64,000 nucleotides of DNA from Escherichia coli (lineage in GTDB: Bacteria > Pseudomonadota > Gammaproteobacteria > Enterobacterales > Enterobacteriaceae). The stretch lies in NCBI RefSeq assembly GCF_044324785.1, contig NZ_CP172127.1; one strand, 5' to 3'. Positions 45,001 to 48,000 of this stretch are shown in pieces. The position numbers were made by a program. How positions within the stretch are numbered: the stretch's first letter is position 1; every line of letters starts with the position of its first letter.

Positions 45001-48000
45001 AACATCGAAGAGCTGAAAAAACGCATGGAGCAAAGTCGATTGCGGAAATTGCGTGGCGATCTCGACCAGTTGATTGAGTCCGATCCGAAACTGCGGGCGT
45101 TACGTCCACATCTCAAAATCGATCTGGTCCAGGAAGGTCTACGTATTCAGATCATCGATAGCCAGAATCGTCCGATGTTCAGAACCGGCAGTGCCGACGT
45201 CGAACCCTATATGCGCGACATTCTGCGCGCCATCGCGCCCGTTCTGAATGGTATTCCCAACCGAATTAGCCTCTCGGGTCATACCGATGATTTTCCCTAC
45301 GCCAGCGGTGAGAAAGGTTACAGCAACTGGGAGCTTTCTGCCGATCGTGCCAATGCATCCCGCCGCGAACTGATGGTTGGTGGGTTGAATGGCGGCAAAG
45401 TGTTACGTGTCGTCGGCATGGCGGCAACGATGCGCTTAAGCGATCGCGGACCTGATGATGCCGTCAACCGTCGCATCAGCCTGCTGGTACTGAACAAACA
45501 AGCCGAACAGGCCATTTTGCATGAAAACGCCGAAAGCCAGAATGAGCCAGTAAGCGCCCTGGAAGAACCTGAGGTTGCACCACAGGTCAGTGTTCCCACA
45601 ATGCCATCAGCCGAACCGAGGTGACAGCGTGAGCATGGATATAAGCGATTTTTATCAGACATTTTTTGATGAAGCGGACGAACTGTTGGCTGACATGGAG
45701 CAGCATCTGCTGGTTTTGCAGCCGGAAGCGCCAGATGCCGAACAATTGAATGCCATCTTTCGGGCTGCCCACTCGATCAAAGGAGGGGCAGGAACCTTTG
45801 GCTTCAGCGTTTTGCAGGAAACCACGCATCTGATGGAAAACCTGCTCGACGAAGCCAGACGAGGTGAGATGCAACTCAACACCGACATTATCAATCTGTT
45901 TTTGGAAACGAAGGACATCATGCAAGAACAGCTCGACGCTTATAAACAGTCGCAAGAGCCGGATGCCGCCAGCTTCGATTATATCTGCCAGGCCTTGCGT
46001 CAACTGGCATTAGAAGCGAAAGGCGAAACGCCATCCGCAGTGACCCGATTAAGTGTGGTTGCCAAAAGTGAACCGCAAGATGAGCAGAGTCGCAGTCAGT
46101 TGCCGCGACGAATTATCCTTTCGCGCCTGAAGGCCGGGGAAGTCGACCTGCTGGAAGAAGAGCTGGGGCATCTGACAACGTTAACTGACGTGGTGAAAAG
46201 GACGGATTCTCTCTCGGCAATATTACCGGGCGACATCGCCGAAGATGACATCACAGCGGTACTCTGTTTTGTGATTGAAGCCGATCAGATTACCTTTGAA
46301 ACAGTAGAAGTCTCACCAAAAATATCCACCCCACCAGTGCTTAAACTGGCAGCCGAACAAGCGCCAACCGGTCGCGTGGAGCGGGAAAAAACGACGCGCA
46401 GCAGTGAATCCACCAGCATCCGTGTAGCGGTAGAAAAGGTTGATCAATTAATTAACCTCGTCGGCGAGCTGGTCATCACCCAGTCCATGCTTGCCCAGCG
46501 CTCCAGTGAACTGGACCCGGTTAATCATGGTGATTTGATTACCAGCATGGGGCAGTTACAACGTAACGCTCGTGATTTGCAGGAATCAGTGATGTCGATT
46601 CGCATGATGCCGATGGAATATGTCTTTAGTCGCTATCCCCGGCTGGTGCGTGATCTGGCGGGAAAACTCGGCAAGCAGGTAGAACTGACGCTGGTGGGCA
46701 GTTCCACTGAACTCGACAAGAGCCTGATAGAACGCATTATCGACCCGCTGACCCACCTGGTACGCAATAGCCTCGATCACGGTATTGAACTGCCAGAAAA
46801 ACGGCTCGCCGCAGGTAAAAATAGCGTCGGAAATTTAATTCTGTCTGCCGAACATCAGGGTGGCAATATTTGCATTGAAGTGACCGACGATGGTGCGGGG
46901 CTAAACCGTGAGCGAATTCTGGCAAAAGCGGCCTCGCAAGGTCTGACCGTCAGCGAAAACATGAGCGACGACGAAGTCGCGATGCTGATATTTGCCCCTG
47001 GCTTCTCCACGGCGGAGCAGGTCACCGACGTCTCCGGGCGCGGCGTCGGCATGGACGTCGTTAAACGTAATATCCAGGAGATGGGCGGTCATGTCGAAAT
47101 CCAGTCGAAGCAGGGTACTGGCACTACGATCCGCATTTTACTGCCGCTGACGCTGGCCATCCTCGACGGCATGTCCGTACGCGTTGCGGATGAAGTTTTC
47201 ATTCTGCCGCTGAATGCTGTCATGGAATCACTGCAACCCCGTGAAGCCGATCTGCATCCACTGGCCGGCGGCGAGCGGGTGCTGGAAGTGCGGGGTGAAT
47301 ATCTGCCCATCGTCGAACTGTGGAAAGTGTTCAACGTCGCGGGCGCGAAAACCGAAGCTACCCAGGGAATTGTGGTGATCTTACAAAGTGGCGGTCGCCG
47401 CTACGCCTTGCTGGTGGATCAATTAATTGGTCAACATCAGGTTGTAGTTAAAAACCTTGAAAGTAACTATCGCAAAGTCCCCGGCATTTCTGCTGCGACC
47501 ATTCTTGGAGACGGCAGCGTGGCACTGATTGTTGATGTCTCCGCCTTGCAGGCGATAAACCGCGAACAACGTATGGCGAACACCGCCGCCTGAATGAGTA
47601 AAAAGGTAACAATATGACCGGTATGACGAATGTAACAAAGCTGGCCAGCGAGCCGTCAGGCCAGGAATTTCTGGTATTTACCCTTGGTGATGAAGAGTAC
47701 GGTATTGATATCCTGAAAGTGCAGGAGATCCGTGGCTACGATCAGGTAACACGGATTGCGAACACGCCAGCGTTTATCAAAGGCGTCACGAATCTGCGCG
47801 GCGTTATTGTGCCGATTGTCGACTTACGAATTAAGTTCAGCCAGGTGGATGTGGACTATAACGACAACACGGTAGTTATCGTCCTGAATCTCGGACAGCG
47901 GGTGGTCGGCATCGTGGTTGACGGCGTTTCAGACGTGCTTTCATTGACGGCGGAGCAAATTCGTCCGGCACCGGAATTTGCCGTGACGCTTTCAACAGAA

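Follow-up and report, generated by a model that had tools for sequence, protein, structure and literature searches.

The ATG at position 45920 is very probably start(S), the initiation codon of the short form CheA(S), and a single motA-motB-cheA-cheW mRNA very probably carries two in-frame initiation sites, this one and start(L), a GTG at 45629 that begins the long form CheA(L). Positions refer to the window, the whole 64,000-nucleotide stretch of Escherichia coli DNA that was analysed. The arrangement, that of CheA(L)/CheA(S), is already known; this E. coli-like genome has it unchanged, and nothing about it is categorically new. Only modestly new are the quantitative signature of synonymous constraint at the site and the observation that its Shine-Dalgarno (SD) sequence is lineage-specific while an upstream U-rich element is invariant. 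The features of the locus and of the long form are as follows.

43618-43644, + strand: promoter-like site of the sigma-28 type, upstream of motA, departing from the consensus at 2 positions; putative function
45618-45624, + strand: Shine-Dalgarno sequence for start(L), GAGGTGA, read from the sequence; predicted duplex -7.2 kcal/mol
45629-45631, + strand: start(L), GTG initiation codon of CheA(L), from the sequence, the RefSeq match and conservation
45629-47593, + strand: cheA long-form CDS encoding CheA(L), GTG start, 654 codons and stop, from the ORF, its translation and the RefSeq match
45770-45772, + strand: His48 codon CAC, positioned from the translation; phosphorylation site, present only in CheA(L)

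The window holds an operon of the E. coli type, motA-motB-cheA-cheW, and the genes near the site (flhD, flhC, motA, motB, cheA, cheW, tar and tap) all lie on the + strand. Gene order and coordinates agree with the RefSeq annotation of E. coli N3, the closest complete genome (99.4% identity over the 2.3 kb queried, window 45400-47700). The PGAP cheA CDS of that genome (locus 3230-5194) corresponds to window 45629-47593 with the same GTG and stop, and both ends also agree with the K-12 CDS (b1888). The sequence-only reading had named GTG 45629 as the long-form start, in agreement with both records. Counted from this GTG, the ORF is 1965 nt long. Its product is a CheA orthologue with domains P1-P5: the Hpt, CheY-binding, dimerisation, HATPase and CheW-like Pfam domains were all found above their curated cut-offs (5/5). 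His48 we take, as established knowledge, to be the phosphorylation site of CheA.

Start(L) lies directly 3′ of the motB stop. The stop codon TGA (45622-45624) is contained in the SD sequence, which is a strong one, and 4 nt separate the stop from the GTG. The region reads GAGGTGA-N4-GTG AGC ATG, and GAGGTGA-N4-GTGAGCATG is kept in essentially all of the 80 related species fetched. A search for sigma-70-like and sigma-28-like sites gave none from motA up to codon 98, including the first portion of cheA, so both CheA proteins should share one mRNA. The sigma-28-type site upstream of motA is presumed to be the promoter of this single transcript with both starts; another good sigma-28-type match lies upstream of tar, at 48204-48230. 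An internal cheA promoter was considered and is unsupported, as the 5′ part of the gene lacks sites of either type.

The internal start and its signal occupy the following positions.

45911-45915, + strand: Shine-Dalgarno-like AAGGA for start(S), 4-nt spacer; predicted anti-SD duplex -5.4 kcal/mol
45920-45922, + strand: start(S), ATG codon 98, CheA(S) initiation codon, from the frame, the K-12 short-CDS start and conservation
45920-47593, + strand: CheA(S) coding region, 557 codons and stop, nested in frame in cheA; length equal to that of the K-12 second CDS

The ATG is in frame with cheA (45920 = 45629 + 97 × 3), which makes it codon 98, 97 codons past start(L) and downstream of His48, in the peptide context T-K-D-I-M-Q-E-Q. 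Its designation in the sequence-only reading as in-frame Met98 within KDIMQEQ is correct to the base in coordinates, frame and translation. That reading had also proposed looking for an SD sequence upstream of 45920; AAGGA is indeed there, but it is not the feature conserved across genera. A ribosome-binding signal thus precedes codon 98, consisting of AAGGA, which is the same in K-12, together with a TIR-like synonymous constraint. The start(S) stretch has 42% G+C, against 53% for the whole of cheA, and the predicted accessibility of positions -17 to +8 at ATG98 falls in the 90th percentile of the region. There are 18 in-frame Met codons in cheA, and Met98 is the sole internal one with both an SD-like motif and high predicted accessibility.

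SD strength was rejected as a discriminator of start(S), with Met81 and several in-frame GTG and TTG codons scoring equally well or better. Among the points that count against reading the ATG as start(S), its SD is only moderate in strength, and sequence alone fails to separate Met98 from Met81. From the window by itself, start(S) is not beyond chance; codon 98 rises above chance because of its exact collinearity with an experimentally mapped site in K-12 and because of the comparative signal. A minus-strand ORF (45921-45655, 88 aa), whose start is the complement of the CAT at 45919-45921, was dismissed; other genera have TAT at this place (ATT ATG).

The window cheA is collinear with that of K-12 MG1655 without indels, differing at 35 nucleotides (98.2% nucleotide identity) and 5 amino acids (S158L, G191R, A192T, N259S and K484E). 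Across codons 80-115 there are zero nucleotide differences. The K-12 RefSeq record NC_000913.3 lists two cheA CDS, 1973360-1975324 (654 aa) and 1973360-1975033 (557 aa), the second of which begins 291 nt (97 codons) inside the first and matches ATG 45920 base for base. The two strains share the gene, operon, frame, GTG codon 1 and ATG codon 98, and differ only by strain-level divergence outside codons 80-115.

Two CheA polypeptides, the shorter of which is lost on mutation of codon 98, have been described in E. coli laboratory strains (PMC7696710). The same paper assigns the CheA(S) start to ATG-98, reports that CheA-M98L eliminates CheA(S), and states that CheA(S) is dispensable for chemotaxis and that CheZ is localised to the receptor array through it; the paper refers to Smith & Parkinson 1980, Kofoid & Parkinson 1991 and Sanatinia et al. 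1995. Both forms occur in E. coli and Salmonella, the short one without the phosphorylation site (PMC3676780), and the short form is cited as a standard or classic case among N-terminal proteoforms or nested isoforms (PMC11005335, PMC12350097). The view taken from the sequence that this is a known case of tandem starts is borne out by the 557-aa CDS that starts here in the K-12 record and by two of these papers (PMC7696710, PMC3676780). We infer that the strain of the window expresses both CheA forms. Kofoid & Parkinson (1991) are said to have determined the N-terminal sequences of both proteins, and co-expression of CheA(L) and CheA(S) was reportedly observed in other Enterobacteriaceae by McNamara & Wolfe in 1997.

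Conservation around the codon extends to the nucleotide level. Of 5378 complete E. coli genomes, 5371 carry exactly the same 61 nt around ATG98, although over the whole of cheA most genomes are only 95-99% identical to the window. For wider comparison, 80 Enterobacteriaceae species were combined with the window to give 81 sequences, of which 77 full-length genes entered a scan of synonymous variation. Relatives were collected with six peptide patterns. As ETKDIMQE was among these, the conservation of Met98 as an amino acid is in part an effect of how the sequences were chosen; the patterns leave synonymous positions free, and the synonymous-site result is therefore unaffected. ATG98 is present in all 81 sequences, the window counted, and codons 90-93 (CTG TTT TTG GAA) show no nucleotide variation among them despite two sixfold-degenerate Leu codons.

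For sequences encoding the same amino acid, the scan set the pairwise codon differences observed against those expected, normalised per amino acid, following the logic of the 15-codon Synplot2 windows that bioRxiv 10.1101/520783 applied to internal starts. It revealed one zone around the internal start.

45881-45949, + strand: region of reduced synonymous variation with start(S) at its centre, codons 85-107, in 77 species

The gene-wide minimum falls at codons 88-102 (observed/expected 0.387), with codons 87-107 at 0.386. The next-lowest synonymous diversity is found at codons 1-9, at the annotated start, and at codons 646-654, just upstream of cheW. When the gene was divided into non-overlapping 15-codon bins, codons 91-105 scored 0.41 and codons 1-15 scored 0.51, with all others at 0.75 or above; the trough at start(S) is deeper than that at the annotated start of cheA. 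Column permutations reached a minimum as low as the observed trough in 0 of 20,000 cases (mean minimum 0.69). The start(S) site is under strong purifying selection at the nucleotide level.

The amino acid itself is less informative. Met98 is kept farther out, in Serratia, Pantoea, Proteus, Sodalis and Halomonas-group proteins, while Pandoraea, Bordetella and Achromobacter have Leu at this position, as do Azotobacter and Alcanivorax, in which a Met lies one residue earlier (KDML). Since related proteins carry Leu, Met98 taken alone could be a structural hydrophobic residue, and its position is inside the stretch matched by Pfam Hpt (residues 8-100). Synonymous constraint is therefore a stronger argument for start(S) than the conservation of Met98.

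The SD at start(S) is largely Escherichia-specific, and the conserved cross-genus feature is CTGTTTTTGGAA (codons 90-93). Outside Escherichia, AAGGA precedes ATG98 in just a few genera; most Enterobacteriaceae genera have AAAGATATT before the ATG instead, with an anti-SD duplex of only -3.3 kcal/mol. By contrast, ATG98, the upstream CTGTTTTTGGAA and the downstream CAGGAACAG are common to all 80 species examined. Folding of the region placed part of the upstream element in an inverted repeat.

45896-45904, + strand: 5′ arm of the inverted repeat, CTGTTTTTG, codons 90-92, part of CTGTTTTTGGAA; invariant in 81/81 sequences
45923-45931, + strand: 3′ arm of the inverted repeat, CAAGAACAG, codons 99-101, paired with 45896-45904 in the MFE fold

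The arms, the second of which reads CA(A/G)GAACAG across species, are complementary and form a predicted 9-bp helix that brackets start(S), with the SD region and ATG98 in an 18-nt loop. A repeat search seeded with 6 nt missed the inverted repeat at start(S), owing to a G-U pair at one position. Over 17 distinct sequences, 90.8% of cells in the helix were paired, there were no pairs with compensatory two-sided changes, and the covariation score was no better than that of shuffles (382 of 500 were as high). The 141-nt region around start(S) folds no better than shuffled sequence (z = +0.74), the start(L) region likewise shows no gain in stability over shuffled sequence, and the start(S) region matched no Rfam family. 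As the covariation test gave no compensatory changes, we claim no structural role for the hairpin: in the helix region we see neither the compensatory substitutions nor the family match of a structured cis-regulatory RNA, and start(S) carries a conserved nucleotide element of unproven mechanism.

How initiation at ATG98 might be driven is a separate question from whether it takes place. We consider it possible, though rather doubtful, that CUGUUUUUGGAA (codons 90-93) belongs, together with the complementary sequence 3′ of the ATG, to a conserved cis-acting RNA element, and that initiation at ATG98 is driven mainly by this element and not by AAGGA pairing. It might act as a hairpin that presents the start codon in its loop, or as a U-rich landing pad for the ribosome or S1; in either role it would make internal initiation possible across most Enterobacteriaceae and determine the CheA(S):CheA(L) ratio, and AAGGA would then be a recent reinforcement specific to Escherichia. 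The restricted distribution of AAGGA and the weak pairing of its replacement are consistent with this, as is the invariance of CTGTTTTTGGAA, which includes a non-preferred TTG Leu codon. In E. coli, Salmonella, Enterobacter and Serratia, local folding gives the hairpin as the MFE structure; the CAA/CAG variation at codon 99 keeps the pairing (A-U or G-U), and the change of TTG to CTG (U to C) in Serratia yields a C-G pair. Inverted repeats flanking both cheA starts were reportedly remarked by Kofoid & Parkinson (1991), and the conserved element is probably the repeat already remarked there. Against it stand the results of the covariation and shuffling tests above, a hairpin stability of only about -8 kcal/mol, and the decay of the pairing in Proteus, Sodalis and Vreelandella, all of which have Met98. 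Moreover, the arms encode the conserved peptides LFL and QEQ, which leaves only third positions informative.

Two further alternatives dispute that CheA(S) is initiated at codon 98 in this strain. ATG98 could be an ordinary internal Met codon with full-length CheA alone being made: initiation is not provable from a nucleotide sequence and the SD is moderate, but codons 80-115 are identical to those of K-12, where the short form is documented and annotated, and the strongest synonymous constraint in the gene sits exactly at codon 98. We regard this as very improbable. Even less probable, in our judgement, is a short CheA that arises by another route, namely initiation at Met81 (ATG 45869), proteolytic cleavage of CheA(L) or an internal transcript of its own. 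Met81 has a stronger SD-like sequence, GAGGTG (-7.2 kcal/mol), and the residue itself is shared by 80 of 81 sequences. However, this GAGGTG is too close, ending only 2-3 nt before ATG81, other genera show free synonymous variation in its codons (77-80), and the predicted accessibility of Met81 reaches only the 58th percentile. The removal of CheA(S) by M98L (PMC7696710) and the lack of promoter-like sites in the 5′ part of cheA also speak against another route.

Initiation at start(S) remains the preferred reading, and under it the operon mRNA would be used twice. Ribosomes initiating at GTG 45629, through the SD sequence that overlaps the motB stop, would produce CheA(L), a 654-aa autokinase phosphorylated at His48. 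Others would bind de novo at the internal site, where AAGGA, the 4-nt spacer and the ATG lie in an A/U-rich stretch predicted to be relatively accessible, and would produce CheA(S), of 557 aa. The Pfam Hpt match covers CheA residues 8-100 and solved P1 constructs span residues 1-131 or 1-138, so CheA(S) loses His48 and most of the four-helix bundle and keeps the tail of P1. The earlier description of a protein lacking the His48 domain therefore holds for residues 1-97, His48 included, and not for the whole of P1: CheA(S) retains the P1 tail and all of P2-P5. Because residues 1-97 are missing, it would not be phosphorylatable; because the P1 tail and P2-P5 are kept, it should still enter receptor arrays. 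There, CheA(S) would bind CheZ and concentrate this CheY-P phosphatase at the array. The P1 remnant, from residue 98 to about 134, is presumably the place where CheZ binds. The genome encodes CheZ in the tar-tap-cheRBYZ cluster.

53916-54560, + strand: cheZ, 214 aa counted from an ATG inside the listed ORF; a functional partner that does not belong to the start site

Entry of CheA(S) into receptor arrays and an interaction between CheA(S) and CheZ have been described (PMC7696710, PMC3676780), and by putting CheZ at the receptor array CheA(S) shapes where in the cell CheY-P is destroyed (PMC7696710).

Tandem starts of this kind are also found in infB (IF2 alpha/beta), clpB, mrcB and arcB, where one mRNA likewise carries a second in-frame start with an SD-like signal of its own and where synonymous-site conservation is locally raised, judged there too by a 15-codon-window criterion (bioRxiv 10.1101/520783). 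Gene and function differ: the short form of CheA is a scaffold for the phosphatase CheZ. That Ribo-RET preprint confirms the internal starts of infB, clpB and mrcB; unlike these, cheA is absent from the sites reported in its data set and is not mentioned in its text, and the literature searched yielded no TIS-profiling support for start(S).

The gene is a classic bacterial case of one gene giving two proteins through tandem in-frame starts. It is also a reminder for annotation that a second CDS belongs inside cheA, which the K-12 RefSeq record shows and automated PGAP records miss. The synonymous trough at codon 98, the deepest in cheA, offers a clean positive control for the detection of internal starts by sequence comparison.

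Upstream of Met98, the start codon of the short isoform CheA(S) (ATG, 45920-45922), one stretch of cheA, CTGTTTTTGGAA (codons 90-93, window 45896-45907), was found without nucleotide variation in 81 of 81 Enterobacteriaceae sequences, comprising the window and the cheA loci of 80 species. Synonymous-site constraint within cheA is strongest at this position, and the invariant stretch contains a TTG leucine codon, which is non-preferred. The Shine-Dalgarno (SD)-like motif AAGGA, located before Met98 at 45911-45915, was observed only in Escherichia and a few other genera among the 80 loci. 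Most Enterobacteriaceae carry AAAGATATT in its place, and their internal cheA start is therefore nearly devoid of an SD. Met81 (ATG at 45869; region 45861-45871) is preceded by the SD-like sequence GAGGTG, which is stronger than the Met98 motif and is separated from the ATG by a spacer of only 2-3 nt. No synonymous-site conservation of this GAGGTG was detected in other genera.

At the motB-cheA junction (window 45618-45637), the cheA SD, GAGGTGA, encloses the TGA stop codon of motB. As judged from sequence, this SD could be used by either GTG-1 (4-nt spacer) or ATG-3 (10-nt spacer); GTG is the start chosen in reference annotations, and the arrangement GAGGTGA-N4-GTGAGCATG is kept in essentially all of the 80 species. 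A junction and a P1-P2 region of Enterobacteriaceae type (67% identity) were also present in L041, a locus from an assembly titled Chryseobacterium sp. 18061, which is probably mislabelled or contaminated. The cheA frame of Citrobacter koseri NCTC10786 (L011) stops after 374 aa, compared with about 675 expected; the gene may be frameshifted or a pseudogene, or the assembly may be in error at this point.

The two CheA isoforms are represented by separate CDS features in the curated K-12 MG1655 record (L089; NC_000913.3, 1973360-1975324). PGAP-annotated genomes, such as that of strain N3, the closest complete E. coli genome, carry the long cheA CDS only, and short CheA is thus systematically absent from automated annotations.

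The window is of E. coli chromosomal type, with fli (fliF, fliD, fliC, amyA) and flhDC-mot-che-flhBA-argS regions. Compared with 5,426 complete E. coli genomes, the best identity over 25 kb was only 98.4-98.9% (window 1-25000 and 39001-64000), so that the lineage of the window lacks a close representative among them. Plasmid-classed records accounted for 2 of the 5385 cheA matches in the E. coli genome collection. Five sigma-28 (FliA)-type promoter-like sites were observed in the window, against 0.4 expected by chance:

18078-18224, sigma-28-type divergent pair in the fliC-fliD region
26032-26058, minus strand, sigma-28-type site with 3 mismatches
43618-43644, sigma-28-type site in the terminal part of flhC, upstream of motA
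48204-48230, sigma-28-type site upstream of tar, perfect consensus
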